Below, piece by piece: positions 4,114 through 64,000 of a DNA stretch of 64,000 nucleotides. Origin of the DNA: Amoebidium appalachense. Taxonomy: Eukaryota; Protista; Ichthyosporea. The notes beneath the pieces are model-generated. The model searched no databases, was not told the origin of the DNA, and was given only the letters and a program-made list of their open reading frames with translations. The position numbers and the translations under genes were made by a program. The stretch spans positions 4,693,814-4,757,813 of the forward strand of contig CAVNZM010000013.1 in the NCBI GenBank assembly GCA_963693365.1. Reading direction: 5' to 3'. Every line of letters starts with the position of its first letter. Positions within the stretch are counted from its first letter, which is position 1.

Positions 4114-4977
4114 GACTTCTGCCCTGCATGCAAGTCGCCTTCTCTTTCCGGCTTTCCTTGTTTCGAAATTTTCCCCACTCCTGCGCTTCCGGCCTTCACA
4201 AATCATCGAGAACTGGTCACACAAAATGACACCGGGTCAGTGACACGAGTCAACCATATGATCATATCATGACCGCCGGAATCTTCGTACTAGTACTGCA
4301 GGAGAATTGATCCAACCCCCCCCCCCCCCCCCCCCCCCTCCCCCTCCCCCCCCTGCCCCCCCGCCCCTTCCCACCCTTCCCTCCCACTACCCATCCCCCT
4401 CCCTACGGCCCACCCATCCACGGCCACCCCATGGCCATGGCCAATCCATCTCCCTACCTTGTTCCCTAGGCTATTCTAGTATATATCTCTCCTCTCCGTG
4501 ACTTCCCCCTCCCGGCCCCCCCCCCCTCCCTCCCTCCCTCCCTCCTCCTCCCCTCCCCCCCTCCCGGAGTCCCCCCTCCCCCCTTCCTCGTCGGCCCCCC
4601 CCCCCTCCCCCCCCCCCCCCCCTCCCCCCCCGAAGCCCTTCCTTCAACCCCCTCCTTTTCCAGAATTCCGGGACCCGGGCGATCAAAACCTTCCGCCTGT
4701 CCAGGTTTTCTCTCTGTCAGTGACCGACATAGATTGCCCGGACACCACTAAAGGGCCATCTTACTGGCATTCCTCCGCACAAAGTTTACTAATAGTATTT
4801 TTTAATAGTCGCTCGCCGACGGGCGACACTTCTCGATCGCTGCCCTTGAGCTCCCAACTGCCATAAGACCCCCCCCCCCCCCCCCCCTCCCCCCCTCCCC
4901 CCACCACCACCACCCCCCCTCTCCCCCCTTCCCCGGCCGTGGACCCACCCACCCGGGCCCCCAACCCGCATTCACGG

Positions 4978-6723: not shown

Positions 6724-9538
6724 TCTGTGTGTGTGTGTGCTTGTGTGTGCTTGTGTGTGTGTGTGGGGGGGGGGGGGGGGGGGGATGCTCACGGGTGTGT
6801 GTGGGGGGAATATTGCATCTAGTAAATGTGGGTGTATGGGTGTGTGTGTGTGCGCACCCATGCCCACAACACCGACTGGGTAGTGGCCTTTTGGCCATCA
6901 ACCATGTCAAAACTCTCTCTCCCTCCTAACCTCTCTAGGTCATCTGACCACTCTCCTATCCTTTTCCTACCTAAGATCTCCCTTGATCTGCTCCCCCCTC
7001 CTCCTCCCACCTTTCGCCTCCGTCTATCCCAGCTTAAGTCACAGTGGGGTAGAGTTGATGTATGTGTATGCTATGCAACGAAACACCCTATATATATGCG
7101 CCTATTAGAATCTGCACAAGCCAGACCAGATTCACATCTCGTACTAGATACATGCACTAACTTTATTGTTGATGATTTAATAGATCTCGGTGATTATGCT
7201 GGTGGTGGTAGGAAGGAATATCCCGATGCTCTCTTGTTACCAAACACCACTCCCGCTAGACTAGGTGAACCCCTGTCTCAAAAGGAAAGCTTGCGCCGGC
7301 TTGCTAGTATGAATCGATTTGGCCCCCCTGCTCGTATTATTGGTGATACCACTGGAGACCCCCTCATAGACTCTGATAAGTATTTCTCGGAACTGTTTAA
7401 AGATAGGACCCCCGCTCAGAAACCTATTGTGTGGCCTGTAGACCCATCTATCCCCATAGAATCGATCCTCCCCTTTTTCAGTCCCGATACCATATGGTCT
7501 GTATATCTAGTTATAGCTCTAGTAAGTCTTGTGGACCTGATGGACTCCCTGCTGGGTTTCTTAAAATCCTTGTTCCCTCCTACCCACAAAAGGAAAGTGA
7601 TCGTGCTATTAAACCTGATCTTACTATCATGTTAAGCTCTCTCTTTTCTTGGTGTGTTAAATGTGGACATGTCCCGTCATCTTGGTTAGATACCTTAGTG
7701 ATCCCCATAGTTAAGAAGGACTCTGAGGGCCCCATATCATCCTTTCGCCCCATCACACTAACCCAGGTTGTTCGTAGATTCTTTGAAGCTTGCTTACTTA
7801 GGTTATTTGCACATCACCCTAGGTTTCAATCTATTCTTCACATACACCCATGCCAATCCGCTTTTCGTAAAAACAATTCATGTTATGTTCAAATAATGGC
7901 ACTGCACGATTCTATGCAAGTAGGTGCACGATATGTTGGCTTTATTGATTGGAAAACTGCTTACGATTCTGTCTCCCCTGGTCTCCTATGGGAAAAGCTT
8001 GCTGCACGGGGTGTACCACACTGCATTGGTGTTCTGTTAGAAGCACTCTTGTCTCAAACCTATGGTAGAGCTGTGGTTAATGGGCATCTTTCATATGGTT
8101 TTGCTCGTACTAGAGGTCTCTTGCAGGGTTCATTGCTTAGCCCCTTTTTGTTTAAACTATTTCAAGTTATAGATGATTTGGCTGTCAAAAATTAATCCCG
8201 AAAACGATGACCCTATTAATAACTTTCCGCATGCACTTCTCTATGCTGATGATCTGTCCCTCCTTGCCCGTACCCCTAGACGCCTGCAAAGATTGTTCGA
8301 TGTAGTGTCAGAGTGGTGCAAGGCAAACCTTATGATCCTTAACATAGACAAATGTGGTGTTCTTGTACCGGCTGATATAGCTAACAATATACACACATTT
8401 ACATTATCATCTAAACCTGAGGCTATAGTTCCAGAATACAAATATCTTGGTGTTCCGGTTAATTCTGTTGGTGTTATATTTTCCCATATGGTCGAAAAGA
8501 GGGTAGAGTTGGCTCGCAAGCGGTTAGCTTTCTTCTCGGCTAATATGTTTAAAGGCACACCCCTCCATCCTTCTATTAGACTTACATTTATTCGCACTTT
8601 TGTCTTCCCGGCATGTGAATATGGTTTACCCCTTCTCGCCGCTTGGATCAAGAAAGAGATTCTGAACTAGAGCGCTTAAACCCTTGGCAAATTTCCTTGA
8701 AGCAGAAGTTGCCTCCTTTCTATCTAACAACTGTTGTAAACCTGGGCCTGTAACGCTCTCGATATATGGTCTGGTCCCAATAGCTGCTAGAGTATCCTAT
8801 CCCGCGCTGAAATTCAGTAAGCACATAAGCCGCTTAAAGAAGTATTTGCCCTCCCACCCTCTCTTCTCTATCCGACCTGTCCCCTCCTCACCTCTCCCCT
8901 CTTTCCTTCCCTCTCTCTCCCCTTCTCCCCTGGGCACAAATACAAATAAACCCCGCAGGAGTGTGTGTGTGACTTTGGACTGCCACTTACTTATTAAACA
9001 TGTACACAATCACAAGATAATCACGCAATATAACAAATGGAAAAAGATACCACACGACACTAGACCCGATGAAAGCATACACCTTAAAAAACTAAGCCTT
9101 ATGTCTCGTTTTATATTACTGACCGCCTCAACCATATTGCCAAATATGGCACTCGCAAATGTCTAACACCTAAATACATATTACCTTCCTATAGAACTGG
9201 TCCTTCTCTAGCTGATGGTATTATTGATCAATTACCACGCTTTTACTGTACACGTGCTATACAGTGGAGATCTAATAAGTATAAAGTGGCATCATTTGCA
9301 TGCCCAAACAACACACACACACACACCAGTTTAACCGGTCATGTATCGCCAAATGTAGTTTGATAGACCACATAATACCGCAATACATACACGTCACATT
9401 CACAACAGACACCCAGAAAGATAGCCTACCTGTAAATTACAACATCCTTGATTTTATACTAAACACGCGTAACTACGACCTGTTTATTAGATGTATTGAT
9501 TGGCTTGAGAAACACATCACTACAAAATTAGCGGCGCA

Positions 9539-9607
<69 letters not shown>

Positions 9608-9638
9608 CCAGCTGATACCGAGTGTCCCAGGGGAGCCC

Positions 9639-9675
<37 letters not shown>

Positions 9676-10108
9676 GGGGAACCTAACTAATTGATTTCTC
9701 TTTGTAGTCTTTATGGTGTCTCGTAGAGAAAGTAAACCCTGATATATAGTCATCACCCGACATCTATGTACGTGATCATGATATACCGCTGAGGGGATAT
9801 TCCGAGCAAAAACCCCCCCATACCTGAGACTGGTTTCTCTTTGCCTCGAGTAAACAGCATAAACCCCCGTGTATACATGACACGTGTGTGTGTGTATGGA
9901 TGTGTGTTGTGTGTATGTGGGGTGCCCGGGGGTTGAGGGAGGGGGAGGGAGGGCAGTGGGGAACTTCAAGGAAGGGGCTCGGGGGGGGGGGGGGGGGGGG
10001 GGGGGGGAGGGGAGGGGGGGGAGGGGAGGGAGAAGTCTTGTTGTGTGCCAGAGTGTGCGTGTTTGTGTGTGTGTGTGTGTGTGTTTGTGCCCCATCGGTG
10101 TGTGTGTG

Positions 10109-13098: not shown

Positions 13099-14372
13099 CT
13101 AGCCTAATTATGCTTTCAAGGAATAATTGAAGGATGCAGCTTCATTCATTCATGATTATGCCATGCTCAGTATCATATGAGGCCTGGAGAAAAGATTATG
13201 TAGGTACTAATAGGCTGTAGTCGAACTTTACGTCCTCTTCACTTGGGACACTGACATTGTCAGCTTTGTTCGTGCTCGTACATACTACTGATTGCAGCGT
13301 TGGGCCGCCTTACACAGGGGCGTAGCGTATTCCAGGTTCATTTGCAGAATCTATAAACTAGCTTTAAAAATGATTTACCAATGAATCACAGGAGTCCGAG
13401 TGCCCAAATCTAACTACTAAAGTCCATTATGATTGTAAAATTTAAATCGGCCCAACTCAGACAGTGCCAGTGCCTTTGTGCACTGGCAGTGTCGGGGGGC
13501 CCGGCCCATGACTAAATATTGCTCCTGAATTTATACATCAATAGTTGGCCCAGGCACCAATTAGACAAGTGCAATTTTTTCCTCGAAACTTGCTACATAA
13601 CGAGCCAGCTGTACTTCTAAGTTCTGACTCCACTGAACTAACTAATGAAGACATCACCTATCATAGTAAACTGCGTGGGAGACGAGTATATTCATATTAG
13701 TTCGGACACTCGCATTCCAATCTAAAAATACTAAAATGAATCTTATTGGCTCATATATAAATTTTTCCTTTGAAAGATTATAATTGGCTCTCGAGTCTCA
13801 ACTATGGACGACTAGTCTCCATGGGAGGGGAGGCGTGTCGGCTTGCAAGTTGCAATTACGTGTCCTATACTCTTCCAGATGAAACGATGAATCCATTTCT
13901 AAACACTCAATCTCGACAGCAGCTAGAATTGTTGAAAGCAATTGTTATTTGGCTTTTTATATGTGTAGAACAATCTTATAGTTAGTCCTTTAGTAATAAT
14001 CGTTCTATTGGTTTCCTTGGCTCATCCCCCTACACCACATCTCGGCAACGCATTCCTGGCAAGATTTTTTAATAATGACTTTATTGATATGCTCAGCAAA
14101 ATAGAAGCCATCGAGATATCACCGATATCTCGGGGAAGAAAATATAAAAGCCCTCACTCTCGGATACGGAGGAAATAACGACTCAAATAATCATACACCC
14201 TAGAAAACTCGTTAAAAACACCGTGGTTCAACAGATAGTCAATAGACGTAATATCAGGATTATCTAAATAAGCCAGTCTTCTAATTTCTAACGTAATAAT
14301 CTGAGATAAATAAATACATCTATCTAAGTGTTTACGAGAATAAGGCTCCGCACAAAAGTGGCACAAACATTT

Positions 14373-17156
14373 CGAATTGACTCACGAGTTGTCACAGTTA
14401 CCAATGTCCACTGTTATTTTAGGTGATTTTAACACGCGACTCCACCACACAGACACACTGCAAGTGAGTGTCGGGTACCCATCTAAGCCCCCGGAGCGTG
14501 CTATCCCTTTAGCAAGGTATGTCCAAAGTCACACTTTGCGGTTCCCTCAAATATCCCATGCCCACAACACCGACTGGGGAGTGGCCTTTTGGCCATCAAC
14601 CATGTCAAAACTCTCTCTCCCTCCTAACCTCTCTAGGTCATCTGACCACTCTCCTATCCTTTTCCTACCTAAGATCTCCCTTGATCTGCTCCCCCCTCCC
14701 CCTCCCACCTTTCGCCTCCGTCTATCCCAGCTTAAGTCACAGTGGGGTAGAGTTGATGTATGTGTATGCTATGCTACGAAACACCCTATATATATGCGCC
14801 TATTAGAATCTGCACAAGCCAGGCCAGATTCACATCTCGTACTAGATACATGCACTAACTTTATTGTTGATGATTTGATAGATCTCGGTGATTATGCTGG
14901 CGGTGGTAGGAAGGAATATCCCGATGCTCTCTTGTTACCAAACACCACTCCCGCTAGACTAGGTGAACCCCTGTCTCAAAAGGAAAGCTTGCGCCGGCTT
15001 GCTAGTATGAATCGATTTGGCCCCCCTGCTCGTATTATTGGTGATACCACTGGAGACCCCCTCATAGACTCTGATAAGTATTTCTCGGAACTGTTTAAAG
15101 ATAGGACCCCCGCTCAGAAACCTATTGTGTGGCCTGTAGACCCATCTATCCCCATAGAATCGATCCCTGCTGGGTTTCTTAAAATCCTTGTTCCCTCCTA
15201 CCCACAAAAGGAAAGTGATCGTGCTATTAAACCTGATCTTACTATCATGTTAAGCTCTCTCTTTTCTTGGTGTGTTAAATGTGGACATGTCCCGTCATCT
15301 TGGTTAGATACCTTAGTGATCCCCATAGTTAAGAAGGACTCTGAGGGCCCCATATCATCCTTTCGCCCCATTACACTAACCCAGGTTGTTCGTAGATTCT
15401 TTGAAGCTTGCTTACTTAGGTTATTTGCACATCACCCTAGGTTTCAATCTATTCTTCACATACACCCATGCCAATCCGCTTTTCGTAAAAACAATTCATG
15501 TTATGTTCAAATAATGGCACTGCACGATTCTATGCAAGTTGGTGCACAATATGTTGGCTTTATTGATTGGAAAACTGCTTACGATTCTGTCTCCCCTGGT
15601 CTCCTATGGGAAAAGCTTGCTGCACGGGGTGTACCACACTGCATTGGTGTTCTGTTAGAAGCACTCTTGTCTCAAACCTATGGTAGAGCTGTGGTTAATG
15701 GGCATCTTTCATATGGTTTTGCTCGTACTAGAGGTCTCTTGCAGGGTTCATTGCTTAGCCCCTTTTTGTTTAACCTATTTATAGATGATTTGGCTGTCAA
15801 GATTTACGCCGAAAACGATGACCCTATTAATAACTTTCCGCCTGCACTTCTCTATGCTGATGATCTGTCCCTCCTTGCCCGTACCCCTAGACGCCTGCAA
15901 AGATTGTTCGATGTAGTGTCAGAGTGGTGCAAGGCAAACCTTATGATCCTTAACATAGACAAATGTGGTGTTCTTGTACCTGATATAGCTAACAATTTAC
16001 ACACATTTACATTATCATCTAAACCTGTACCTATAGTTCCAGAATACAAATATCTTGGTGTTCCGGTTGATTCTGTTGGTGTTATGTTTCCCCATATGGT
16101 CGAAAAGAGGGTAGAGTTGGCTCGTAAGCGGTTAGCTTTCTTCTCGGCTAATATTTTTAAAGACACACCCCTCCATCCTTCTATTAGACTTACATTTATT
16201 CGCACTTTTGTCTTCCCGGCATGTGAATATGGTTTACCCCTTCTCGCCGCTTGGATCAAGAAAGAGAGAACTAGAGCGCTTAAACCCTTGGCAAATTTCC
16301 TTGAAGCAGAAGTTGCCTCCTTTCTATCTAACAACTGTTGTAAACCTGGGCCTGTAACGCTCTCGATATATGGTCTGGTCCCAATAGCTGCTAGAGTATC
16401 CTATCTCGCGCTGAAATTCAATAAGCACATAAGCCGCTTAAAGAAGTATTTGCCCTCCCACCCTCTCTTCTCTATCCGACCTGTCCCCTCCTCACCTCTC
16501 CCCTCTTTCCTCCCCTCTCTCTCCCCTTCTCCCCTGGGCACAAATACAAATAAACCCCGCAATAGTGTGTGTGTGACTTTGGACTGCCACTTACTTATTA
16601 AACATGTACACAATCACAAGATAATCACGCAATATAACAAATGGAAAAAGATACCACACGACACTAGACCCGATGAAAGCATACACCTTGAAAAACTAAG
16701 CCTTATGTCTCGTTTTATATATACTGACCGCCTCAACCATATTGCCAAATATGGCACTCGCAAGTGTATAACACCTAAATACATATTACCTTCCTGTAGA
16801 ACTGGTCTTTCTCTAGCTGATGGTATTATTGATCAATTACCACGCTTTTACTGTACACGTGCTATACAGTGGAGATCTAATAAGTATAAAGTGGCATCAT
16901 TTGCATGCCCAAACAACACACACACACACCAGTTTAACCGGTCATGTATCGCCAAATGTAGTTTGATAGACCACATAATACCGCAACACACACACGTCAC
17001 ATTCACAACAGACACCCAGAAAGATAGCCTACCTGTAAATTACAACATCCTTGATTTTATACTAAACACGCGTAACTACGACCTGTTTATTAGATGTATT
17101 GATTGGCTTGAGAAACACATCACTACAAAATTATAGCGCACGCGCACACACACACA

Positions 17157-28244: not shown

Positions 28245-28320
<76 letters not shown>

Positions 28321-28438
28321 TGCCCGTCCACCTGCCCGCCCACGCACCCGCCCACCTGCCTGTCCACCACCCGCCCGCCTGCTCACCCGCCCGCCAGGCC
28401 GTGGCATGGGCGCCTGCACGAACGCGCGCGCGCGCGCG

Positions 28439-28497
<59 letters not shown>

Positions 28498-28529
28498 AGA
28501 GACAGATGTAGTCACAGGGAGAAGCTGCG

Positions 28530-28593
<64 letters not shown>

Positions 28594-28841
28594 CAGATGT
28601 AGTCACAGGGAGAAGCTGTAGGATGATAGAGGAATGTATATATAACCATGTCCTGTACCTTGAACACAAACCGTGCTTACTGTGATTCTTACACACACAC
28701 ACACACATACATGCCCGTCCCCCTGCCCGCCCACGCACCCGCCCACCTGCCCGTCCGCCCAACCGCCCGCCTGCTCACCCGCCCGCCAGCCCGTGGCATG
28801 GGCGCCTGCACGAACGCGCGCGTGTGCGCGCGCGCGCGCGT

Positions 28842-28903
<62 letters not shown>

Positions 28904-28931
28904 ACAGATGTAGTCACAGGGAGAAGCTGCG

Positions 28932-28993
<62 letters not shown>

Positions 28994-29085
28994 CAGATGT
29001 AGTCACAGGGAGAAGCTGTAGGATGATAGAGGAATGTATATATAACCATGTCCTGTACCTTGAACACAAACCGTGCTTACTGTGA

Positions 29086-29120
<35 letters not shown>

Positions 29121-37494: not shown

Positions 37495-37855
37495 AGGCGG
37501 AGCACCGGTTGCCAGGGGTTCCCACCGGGCAGATCTGGTCAAATACAGTGGTTACGTTATCCTTGAATTTCAAAACTATCCAATATAAAAACAGGATACC
37601 AAGCTGATATAACCAATGAAAATAAACAATAAGCGCCCATTTGTTATCCCTAAAAGCGATGTAAAGTTTTTTTTTAATACTTTATTGATATGCTCAGCAA
37701 AATAGAAGCCATCAAGATATCACAGATATCTCAGAGAAGAAAATACAAAAGCCCTCACTCTCGGATATGGAGGAGATAACGACTCAAATAATCATACACC
37801 CTAGAAAACTCGTTAAACATATGGTGATTCAACAGATAGTCAATAGACGTAATAT

Positions 37856-39482
37856 TTTTTTTATAATGACTTTATTGATATGCTCATGAAAGAGAAGCAA
37901 GCCGGAGATATCACAGATATCTCAGAGAAGAAAATACAAAAACCCCTACTCACGGATACGGAGGAGATAACGACTCAAATAATCATACACCCTAGAAAAC
38001 TCGTTAAACATACGGTGGTTTAACAGATGGTCAATAGAAGTAATATCAGGATTATCTAAATAAGCTAGTCTTCGAATTTCTAACGGAAGAATCTGAGATA
38101 AATAAATACATTTATCTAGATCTAGATGTTTGCGAGAAAAAGGTTCTGCACAAAAGTGACACGAACATTTATGGAAACTAAGGCTACAACGCCAAAATAA
38201 ACATTTCCAAGCAATATCACACGAAGGGGTTAGAATGGCAAAATCGGCAAGTGTGGTAGGTTTACGAGAGGAAGGATGAATATAAGTAGCTAATTTACAT
38301 AACGACTGTAGAGAAAATAGACGAGTCTCTAATATAAAAAGAAGCACAGGCTCAAGAGTCCGACCATGATACTCTTTATCACAACGATAAAGTAAAGCAT
38401 ATTGAGTATGAAACCAAGAAGTAACCGTTGTGCTGCTGATAAATAGGGGAAGAGAAAAATAAAGGAGACAAATATTAAAAAGGATATCTCTGAATGGGAG
38501 ATAGATTGGGTACAGGACATTTCGCACGAACATTAGAAATGGGAACAGGGTCTAAAGAAGGAAAGAATTGCAACAACTTGATAAGAAGGAAGCCTAACCA
38601 AATGAAAACAAAAGCGAAGGCCTAACTCATTCATGCTGACTCGCCGGAGGGAGACCAAAAACACTCAGCAAAGGAGCCGCCAGAGGATGCCTACACGAGG
38701 TCCGAGAGATGAACTGGATGAATTCACGCTGAAAGGAATCGAATTCCCGAAGCGCCGCGCGCTGTTGCCGTGGAGGGGCACACAAGAGTAACGGGAGGCC
38801 ATATTCGAAACATGGACGAAGAAAAACTTTATAAAGAGTGAGCAGATTAGCAGGATGGACGTTAGAAATACTTGCGAAAATGCCTTGATAGATGTGTAAA
38901 CGACCACGCGCACGGGAAATGCGCGAAGTCAAAAGGCGCTCAAAGCAAATACCCTTAGAGGTGAAAGGAATACCTAAATAATCATAGGAGGACACAACTG
39001 GGATAGGTTCATTGTTCAAAGTGTAGTGTGCATGGGGGGAAAGGTGCCGCATTTATCTATCCCAATTTTCATGAAATTTCGGAACACCAATCATCTACTC
39101 GAGAAAGCATGGTAGTCATAATAGAAGGATCATGAGTGACTTAAACTATATCATCAGCGAAAAAAAGGCCGGAAACACAAGAGTCGCCTGCAACGGGAAA
39201 TTGTTGAATTTCTAAGCGCTAAGTCGTCAATAAAGACATCAAAAAGGAGGGGACTCAAAAGTGAGCCCTGTAAAAGGCCTCGTGTACGACTGAATCCGTT
39301 ACTCAGTACCCCATTCACAACGGCAGCCCCATGGGTGCGGTCAAATAAAGGCCTGAAGTAGTCGACCAAAGGGAAGTGGGAGCCCTTGAGTCGCCAACTT
39401 ATGCCAAAGCAATTCGTCGGAACCGTGTCGTAGGCATTCTTAAGGTCGATGAAGCAAACCTCGCGACATCCCGAACGGATAG
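37856..39482 (-). mobile_element. LINE-B copy, 5'-truncated within RT and frameshifted; 3' part of the chimeric insertion
   Basis: Contains CFIDLKNAYDTV, RGLLQGSLLSPLLFDVFIDDL, frameshifted FADD, YDYLGIP, FEYGLPLL and CHFCAEPFSRKH, then AATAAA and an A-tail at 37855-37862. Confidence 0.92.
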
Positions 39483-39674
39483 AAAAAACTTTCCGGAATA
39501 GCCAAGGCATCCGATCCTTGACTACCCCGGTTGGAGTTATAGCTTAGAGGGCCATTGCCATAGTTCTGCACCCGGCATCAGGGCATCCGATCCCCAATGC
39601 GCTACATCCCGGGATACGAACCAGGTGCCTCAGCCCTCAGGGCCTGCGTCGGAGGCGAGTTACCCGCTGGGCCA
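39483..39674 (-). ncRNA. Retrocopy of a tRNA-derived Pol III-type RNA/SINE (~190 nt) with twin identical-loop hairpins
   Basis: The - strand has an A box TGGCCCAGCGG (39674-39664), a B-box-like GGTTCGTATCC (39622-39612), hairpins at 39600-39575 and 39530-39493, and TTTTTT (39488-39483). Confidence 0.72.
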
Positions 39675-41243
39675 TCAGGATTATCTAAGTCTGCCAGTCT
39701 TCTAATTTCTAACGGAATAATTTGAGATAAATAAATACATCTATCTAAGTGTTTACGAGAAAAAGGTTCTGCACAAAAGTGGCACAAACATTTATGGAAA
39801 CAAAGGTTACAGCGCCTTAAAACAAACATTTCCAAGCTATATCACAAGGAGGGGTTAGAATTGCAAAATCGGTAAGTGTGGTAGGTTTACGAGAGGAAGG
39901 ATAAATATAAGTAGCTAATTTACACAACGATTGTAAAGAAAATAAGCGAGTCTCTAATATAAAAAGAAGCACAGGCTCAAGAGCCCTACCATGATACTCT
40001 TTATCACAACGATGAAGCAAAGGATATTGAGTATGAAACCAAGGAACATATACTGCTGATAAATAGTAGAAGAGAAATATAAAGGAGATACGTATTTAAA
40101 AGGATATATATTGGAATGAGAGATAGATTGGGGATAGGACATTTCGCACGAAGATTAGAAATGGGAACCCTAGGTGCTAAAGAAGGAAAGAATTGCAACA
40201 AAGGATGATAAGAAGGAAGCCTAACCAAATGAAAACAAAAGCGAAGTCCTAATTCATTCATACGCTGACGCGCCGGAGGGAGACCAAAAACACTCAGCAA
40301 GGGAGCCGCCAAAGAATGCCTACGCGAGGTTCGAGAAATAAACTAGATGAATTCGCGCTGAAAGGAATCGAATTCCCGAAGAGCGGCGCGCTGTTGCCGT
40401 GGAGGGGCGCACACAAGAGTAACGGGAGGCCAATTCGAAACATGGACTAAGAAAAACTTTATAAAGAGTGAGCAAATTGGCAGGATGAATACTAGAGATA
40501 TTTGCGAGCATATCTTTCCGTCGAATAAATCCAGTCAAAAGAAAAAAATATTCCTTGATAGATATGTAAGCGACCACGCGCACGAGAAATGCGCGAAGTC
40601 AAAAGGCGCTCAAACCAGATACCCTTAGAGGTGAAAGGAATACCTGTAAATAGTCATAGGAGGACACGAGGGAAGTCCCTCTTATGAATTTATAATTTGA
40701 TTGTTTATCCAATCAAGTTCGCATATCTATCAAGGCCTCCTAGTTGTATCTAGGAGGCCTTTATCCAACTGAGCCGCGCAAACTTCCTCCCCTGCTTTTC
40801 CGATCGATGATTCGATCAAGCAAAAGTACAAGTAGGCAAGTCGCTATTATTTTAGAAGCTGATGTTATATAAAATATAATATAGTGATTAGCGAAGTAAA
40901 CATGCCCATCGCGCACAAGTATTGGTGTTAGCAAACGTTAGCCATGACCTAGGGATGTACCCAACACAAGTGTAGGAAACAGCCACAATTAACAGTTGGG
41001 TGCAAGGTGCATGTTATACGGTGCTGAGGAAAATAGGCAAGAGGAAGTGATTACCTTTCTGTGTTAGTTGCGGGACCAGAAAGGTCGTATTATCGTTTGG
41101 ACATGAGTCTATAGCAGATATGACCTATATTTTCAGTCTTCAGGTATGTTCGTGCGGGTTTGTGCATGTGGGTGTGTGCGGGTTATCAATGCTCTTTGTA
41201 TGTGTCTAGGTGTGCACACGCGCATGTGCGTGTGTAGCTGTCT

Positions 41244-43209: not shown

Positions 43210-64000
<20,791 letters not shown>

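Follow-up and report, generated by a model that had tools for sequence, protein, structure and literature searches.

A dispersed, tRNA-related small-RNA family with a repeated hairpin loop, and a decayed copy joined to a truncated LINE in Amoebidium appalachense

Introduction

BC1, 4.5SI, snaR and the RUF6 RNAs of Plasmodium are lineage-specific Pol III RNAs that derive from tRNAs or SINEs, and combine an internal promoter, a structured body, a U-end and a copy number of few to tens, features that are also found or predicted in the unit described here. The unit differs from them in having no Rfam sequence match and in displaying two identical loops on different stems. The small-RNA inventory of the ichthyosporeans, which are key outgroups for animal gene regulation, has barely been described, and a defined, multi-copy unit of Pol III type with a repeated loop offers both a ready probe and a bait.

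Several other systems resemble the locus in part. According to extracts of PMC5786205, tRNA-derived SINEs (SINE2) carry A and B boxes, a degenerate tRNA-like head and an unrelated body, and are dispersed as copies of which some are truncated, as is also the case here; the tails of SINEs usually derive from LINE 3' ends. Unlike SINE2, the unit has no LINE-derived tail and no poly(A) was seen, its copies end in a T-run and number in the tens, and it contains a duplicated hairpin module with a constant loop. The TMERs of the virus MHV68, as presented in part of PMC4337559, are Pol III products with a tRNA-like head, two stem-loops and a T-run terminator. This likeness, drawn in the initial annotation, holds for the layout (with Pol III transcription presumed here) but not for the details, since no cloverleaf was found, hairpin 1 is predicted to absorb the T-arm, and the loops rather than the arms are kept; furthermore, this small-RNA family is cellular and dispersed.

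The closest described relatives of the joint itself are the U6/LINE-1 chimeras. In the portion of PMC6789731 consulted, genomic U6/L1 chimeras consist of 5-7 T joined to a 5'-truncated L1, and RtcB is reported to ligate the cyclic-phosphate U-tail of U6 to broken L1 RNA before retrotransposition. In a later survey (PMC11838501, in extract), ligation and template switching are both retained as routes, and the partners are extended to tRNA, 7SL, Y, 7SK and Alu RNAs. As in those chimeras, a Pol III-type RNA is here fused in sense, through its T-run and without any base in common, to a LINE that is 5'-truncated and bears poly(A), the whole having likely been inserted as a unit. Relative to the cases in the extracts of PMC6789731 and PMC11838501, the locus differs in its RNA, which is neither U6 nor in Rfam, in its ichthyosporean host, in a 5' end that is likely clipped, and in an overlap of 2 nt as compared with 6-19 nt. 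The chimera would extend U6/L1-type capture to a unicellular holozoan, and RNA-LINE chimeras are structures that can give rise to new SINEs; should the family be no more than a low-copy SINE, the result would be modest.

The stretch of DNA analysed, called the window, comprises 64,000 nucleotides of A. appalachense (contig CAVNZM010000013.1). The reading adopted here, in which we place medium confidence, is that positions 39483-39674 hold a decayed copy of a family that likely encodes a Pol III RNA with putative protein-bound loops, and that this copy was likely inserted together with a broken LINE-B RNA.

The small-RNA unit in the window

The tRNA-related, Pol III-type unit, of about 190 nt, lies on the - strand (39483-39674). 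It comprises an A-box-like motif (39664-39674), the first T of which could instead belong to the target site, a B box (39612-39622) that departs from the consensus at 39616, two hairpins and a run of six T (39488-39483), and all of these elements were found on the strand and at the positions initially annotated. The two boxes are 52 nt apart, which is the tRNA spacing, and constitute the sole A-box/B-box pair in the 64 kb, the B pattern having been relaxed to admit the window copy. The unit starts inside the A box, and a 5' leader is therefore likely missing. The T6, the sole run of at least four T in the unit, is likely a Pol III terminator.

Hairpin 1 (39575-39600) has arms at 39600-39592 and 39583-39575, which form 9 pairs including 2 G-U, and a loop at 39591-39584; it contains an 8-pair core (39599-39576), and about 8 nt of its 3' arm are absent from the window copy at 39573-39575. 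Hairpin 2 (39493-39530) has arms at 39530-39516 and 39507-39493, with 15 pairs including 3 G-U, and a loop at 39515-39508. As read from the sequence, two of the five G-U pairs could derive from CpG decay. The repeated element is 12 nt long, being made up of the 8-nt loop and two closing G-C pairs.

This hairpin and loop pattern exceeds chance. A repeat of 12 nt arose in 4 of 5000 dinucleotide shuffles and a stem of 15 pairs in 2 of 2000, while the 12-mer, with at most one mismatch allowed, occurs in the window at these two places only (0.14 expected). Stems of 15 pairs were also found in 71 of 333 window tiles, a count that simple repeats swamp and that was therefore not used as a control. The fold z-score of the window copy was -2.39 on the - strand, a better fold than in shuffled sequence, and -0.15 on the + strand, which is no improvement on its shuffles.

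Copies in public contigs

Other copies were surveyed through the contigs of five public runs (X1, X6, X8, X12 and X15) among 24 listed. None of the listed runs was marked as RNA, and X12, conjecturally an RNA run, carries no weight as to expression. Before 39483-39485, loose ends show T-runs (- strand) followed by unrelated flanks in 4 and 3 contigs of X1, and the same kind of ending was observed in X8 (2, 1 and 2 contigs) and X12 (3 contigs). The 190-nt unit is thus a dispersed, multi-copy and free-standing family, and the free-standing copies that had been anticipated elsewhere do exist, ending at the same T-run with other flanks. At the listed positions of the spacer between the hairpins (39540-39575), the summed depth in X1 was about 4350-4960 and that of long single contigs 91-233; in X8 the corresponding depths were 864-903 and 32-39. 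The ratio of the unit to long single contigs is near 20-50, depth not being equal to copy number. Contigs of like length and alignment were present in X1 and X8 (1327/1326, 2537/2527 and 1100/1100 nt), and at least three loci are therefore shared by both runs.

The consensus B-box base at 39616 is carried by nearly all of the depth: 15380.8 of 15589.9 in X1, 2598.4 of 2598.4 in X8, 38.8 of 38.8 in X12 and 2.4 of 2.4 in X15. Compared with the window, other contigs are longer by about 8 nt in the 3' arm of hairpin 1 and shorter by 2 nt at 39538; in addition, a stretch of 12 nt at 39631 is missing from one contig per run, and in X15 a loose end has 4 extra nt at 39659. Judged from these alignments, the window copy has decayed, with loss of the B-box consensus and of part of hairpin 1, and is now likely silent.

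Broken copies were also found. One (X1 record 4, X8 record 27) starts at 39615 and is more diverged, with 8 differences and 18 gap positions, another starts at 39611 in X12, and a copy in X1 skips 46 nt of hairpin 2; such copies are what a SINE-like family would leave. No poly(A) was seen on the sense strand of the copies in the public contigs, the ends being fixed at T-runs. The interval 39660-39700 is without cover in X8, X12 and X15, which was not taken as absence because contigs drop rare variants. A contig of X15 (39482-39522) joins the T-run straight to the A-box region of another copy, and may reflect copies in tandem, an RNA that was circular or ligated, or an artefact of the library.

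Searches for known relatives

A scan of the window copy with the Rfam covariance models gave no match at E up to 5, and a second scan gave three matches at 12-14 bits, the gathering thresholds being 44-50. The description of the small RNA as not belonging to a recognised family is hence upheld, no match to tRNA, SRP, vault, snoRNA, HDV-like ribozyme, miRNA or other Rfam families having reached a gathering threshold. Suspected likenesses to tRNA-Leu, 7SL, 5S, 7SK and vault RNA were likewise unsupported by Rfam. ARAGORN at its default threshold detected no tRNA or cloverleaf in the unit; a shifted tRNA fold (39570-39653) appeared only at a threshold of 90% or lower, in a window copy that is without the 5' acceptor strand. 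Comparison of the unit with the three LINE 3' ends in the window revealed no likeness, since 200-215 of 300 shuffles scored as well.

An exact search for the twin-loop pattern returned 30 metagenome loci and one viral locus. These 31 loci were rejected as relatives, all of them being tandem, REP-like or coding repeats that by eye are unlike the unit outside the 12-mer; two contain an unrelated tRNA-Cys, and the Rfam scan of 20 of them gave no match. Among the GC-rich metagenome contigs, L001, L003, L005, L013, L022, L029 and similar loci form a REP-like family in which the same 12-mer stands in an unrelated context, with no Rfam match in those scanned. The hairpin 2 core had no match in viral contigs, and the T-arm motif, in two of the three viral loci where it was found, lies inside a real tRNA gene. 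These exact-pattern searches of metagenome and viral contigs are blind to diverged relatives, and the collections hold few eukaryotic genomes.

No description of such an RNA was found in the paper listings of the published literature. The main text of PMC11244446, as far as accessible, does not contain SINE, tRNA or small RNA as whole words, and its supplements or repeat library may hold the family. The RNA family is undescribed, and its repeated loop unusual.

Predicted folding and the significance of the shared loop

In the window copy, hairpin 2 is predicted with pair probabilities of at least 0.98, while the pairs of hairpin 1 as drawn have probabilities of about 0, its loop pairing with the 5' arm instead. 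The initial proposal of twin hairpins with an identical loop consequently stands for hairpin 2 and for the loop repeat, but not for hairpin 1 of this copy, which is predicted to misfold. When the contig differences are applied, hairpin 1 pairs at 0.99 or above, both loops are open at 0.95 or above, and the insertion in hairpin 1 by itself suffices to restore the predicted fold. This family form, which merges differences from separate contigs (the 12-nt and 4-nt differences in the head coming from one contig per run), has a z-score of -3.07, reached in 0 of 200 shuffles, as against -0.41 on the opposite strand, and is predicted to consist of two rods of about 50 nt, each capped by the same 8-nt loop. 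The T-arm is unformed in the predicted folds (probability 0).

The modules of hairpins 1 and 2 align with each other. When the two hairpins are numbered in register outward from the loop, each of the pairs 3-8 differs between them, three on both sides and three on one side, and each still pairs, in agreement with the earlier remark that the stems differ while the loop is the same; the comparison is one of two members, for which in-register homology is assumed. The main argument of the present analysis is that stems which changed and re-paired while the loop was kept point to selection on the displayed loop. In the public contigs, which hide rare variants, no variant of at least 4% is listed in either loop or in the stem of hairpin 2. 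The suggestion that the repeated loop might be a kissing motif was not sustained, as 351 of the 1680 loop permutations pair with themselves equally well or better.

These features can be accommodated in a scheme in which the tRNA-type A and B boxes of a multi-copy family would recruit Pol III and yield a U-ended RNA of about 200 nt, whose two predicted hairpins likely present the same loop to a host protein. Hairpin 2 would have arisen through internal duplication, after which the stems may have re-paired under retention of the loop, a pattern suggestive of a two-site protein that recognises the loop. A host-kept, tRNA-derived Pol III RNA with putative protein-binding loops is favoured over a tail-less SINE, although its chances are put at roughly even.

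Since the unit is multi-copy, such a SINE is a live rival. It would be a selfish, low-copy, tRNA-derived element with neither poly(A) nor LINE tail, whose hairpins aid its own mobilisation or do nothing, and the window would then hold a SINE/LINE chimera. Tentative credence is due to this possibility: the boxes are of tRNA type without a cloverleaf, the copies are dispersed and some have lost the promoter or part of a hairpin, a recent burst could yield uniform copies, and sense Alu/LINE-1 chimeras are on record in the extracts of PMC11838501. Against it stand the fixed T-run ends with no sense-strand poly(A) seen and no LINE-like tail, the low copy number, and loops that stayed while the stems changed.

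Rather improbable is a cellular TMER-like precursor, from which RNase Z would cut the tRNA-like head and whose hairpins would be diced into small regulatory RNAs. The layout is that of the TMERs, with Pol III transcription, a tRNA-like part and miRNA stem-loops (PMC4337559, in part), and Dicer and Pasha sequences from A. parasiticum appear in the extracts of PMC6206976 and PMC11286789. However, the rods, at about 50 nt, are short, the default threshold yields no cloverleaf, the T-arm competes with hairpin 1, and the Rfam miRNA matches (E 2.3 and 3.2) fall far below the gathering scores. Moreover, the loops are kept and the arms differ, which is the opposite of the pattern of miRNA precursors.

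The nested LINE-B locus and the RNA-LINE joint

The inner LINE-B copy (37856-39482, - strand) is 5'-truncated inside the RT domain (RVT_1 E 1e-6), contains frameshifts and stops, and ends with an AATAAA (37876-37871) and an A-run (37862-37856). It lies with the small-RNA unit inside an older LINE-B copy on the same strand, the 5' half of which (39674-40667) is 85% identical to the inner copy over 1006 columns and constitutes the insertion target, the 3' half occupying 37658-37855. The AT at 37855-37854 repeats the AT at 39675-39674. When the insert and the 2-nt AT overlap are taken out, the older LINE-B is restored, with 284 of 304 aligned bases matching a third copy (14065-14372); it follows that the small RNA and the LINE interrupt the older copy as one unit, and the exact rejoining of the halves claimed at the outset is confirmed. 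This overlap, the only candidate for a target-site duplication around the insert, is of a length that can neither establish such a duplication nor rule out two separate insertions at the same site.

Behind 39482, LINE-B contigs run on into upstream sequence of an intact reverse transcriptase in all four of four runs, and copies of the unit are free-standing, so that the unit is distinct from LINE-B, as had been proposed. The LINE-B base that precedes the junction is not T, and hence no base is shared at the joint; the T6 abuts 39482, which agrees with the direct fusion of the U-tract to the truncated LINE reported before. Both parts have the same orientation, and the LINE joined to the T-run is 5'-truncated and has a poly(A) end. 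The T-run, the sense fusion, the free-standing RNA unit and the nesting all agree with an RNA-LINE chimera, and by analogy the fusion looks like one of the known U6/L1 type.

The 5' junction (39598-39700) was matched without difference in X1 at a depth of 209, which is that of a single contig, and the RNA-LINE joint (39429-39603) was matched without difference in X6 at a depth of 2.4. A high-copy fused element was not seen: the LINE-side depth is wholly explained by contigs that do not cross the joint in X8 (880.5), X12 (256.5) and X15 (10.2), the sum covering these three runs to the exclusion of X1, in which 81 pieces are not listed. The low-depth X6 contig, identical to the window across the joint, runs at 39603 into 52 foreign letters and may be a chimeric read or a second, truncated fused copy.

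With regard to the mechanism, the small RNA and LINE-B were quite probably written in by a one-step capture. The U-tail may have been ligated end-to-end to a 5'-broken LINE-B RNA, or the reverse transcriptase may have jumped onto the small RNA, and the LINE poly(A) would have primed the insertion; the loss of the B-box consensus and of part of hairpin 1 would have come later and likely silenced the copy. Template switching, cited at first as the established route, is indeed a listed one but not the sole one, RtcB ligation having been shown for U6/L1, and by that analogy RNA ligation is as plausible at this locus. A bolder and more doubtful extension would picture an abundant, host-maintained Pol III RNA with a tRNA promoter and a duplicated hairpin, predicted to act as a protein clamp through its two identical loops, and with a U6-like ligatable 3' end; a LINE would have captured this RNA on one occasion, and on another it would have been linked tail-to-head to a further copy of itself (the X15 contig).

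The joint also bears on the idea, for which the chances are slim, that the fused unit is an amplified non-autonomous element, or that the 190 nt represent the 5' UTR, bearing an HDV-like ribozyme, of a LINE-B copy with an internal deletion. The insert starts with GG after the overlap, a short stretch of the window copy resembles HDV P3/L3, and the fused X6 piece starts at 39603 with a foreign flank, all of which would fit. The free copies nevertheless end in T-runs without LINE, the LINE-side depth is accounted for by the non-crossing contigs of X8, X12 and X15, and in X1 the 5' junction has the depth of one contig; as for the ribozyme, no Rfam ribozyme model matched and the stretch folds in other copies as a plain 6-pair hairpin. 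Finally, it is very improbable that the hairpins act as DNA, as ends of a DNA or rolling-circle element with incidental boxes. Hairpin 2 does fold under DNA parameters as well, the two strands then differing less (-10.5 vs -7.8 kcal/mol), but a B box of consensus form in nearly all the depth, the correct A-B spacing and the terminal T-run speak against this reading, and the sense fusion to a LINE points to an RNA stage.

Neighbouring sequence

At 40729-40764, some 60 nt upstream of where the older LINE-B copy begins at its 5' end, there is a short inverted repeat of 12 matching pairs. The window also contains a second LINE family, with copies at 14344-17136 and 6857-9867 on the + strand. The former has an open RT frame of 930 aa that shares, across 64% of its length, 95% identity with an Amoebidium parasiticum EukProt protein, and the latter is a frameshifted copy with 97-99% DNA identity; for the LINE-B RT, that set provides a match at 52%. 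The third LINE-B copy (14065-14372, - strand), a 308-nt 3' fragment in opposite orientation, abuts the start of the 930-aa frame. An exon at 55256-55417 (+ strand) matches the Pfam RALGAPB N-terminal domain (E 4.3e-8) and belongs to a gene in which simple repeats fill the introns; a search with this exon found no relative. At 28300-29090, a tandem duplication of about 390 nt with 94.5% identity encloses an inner repeat of 90 nt.
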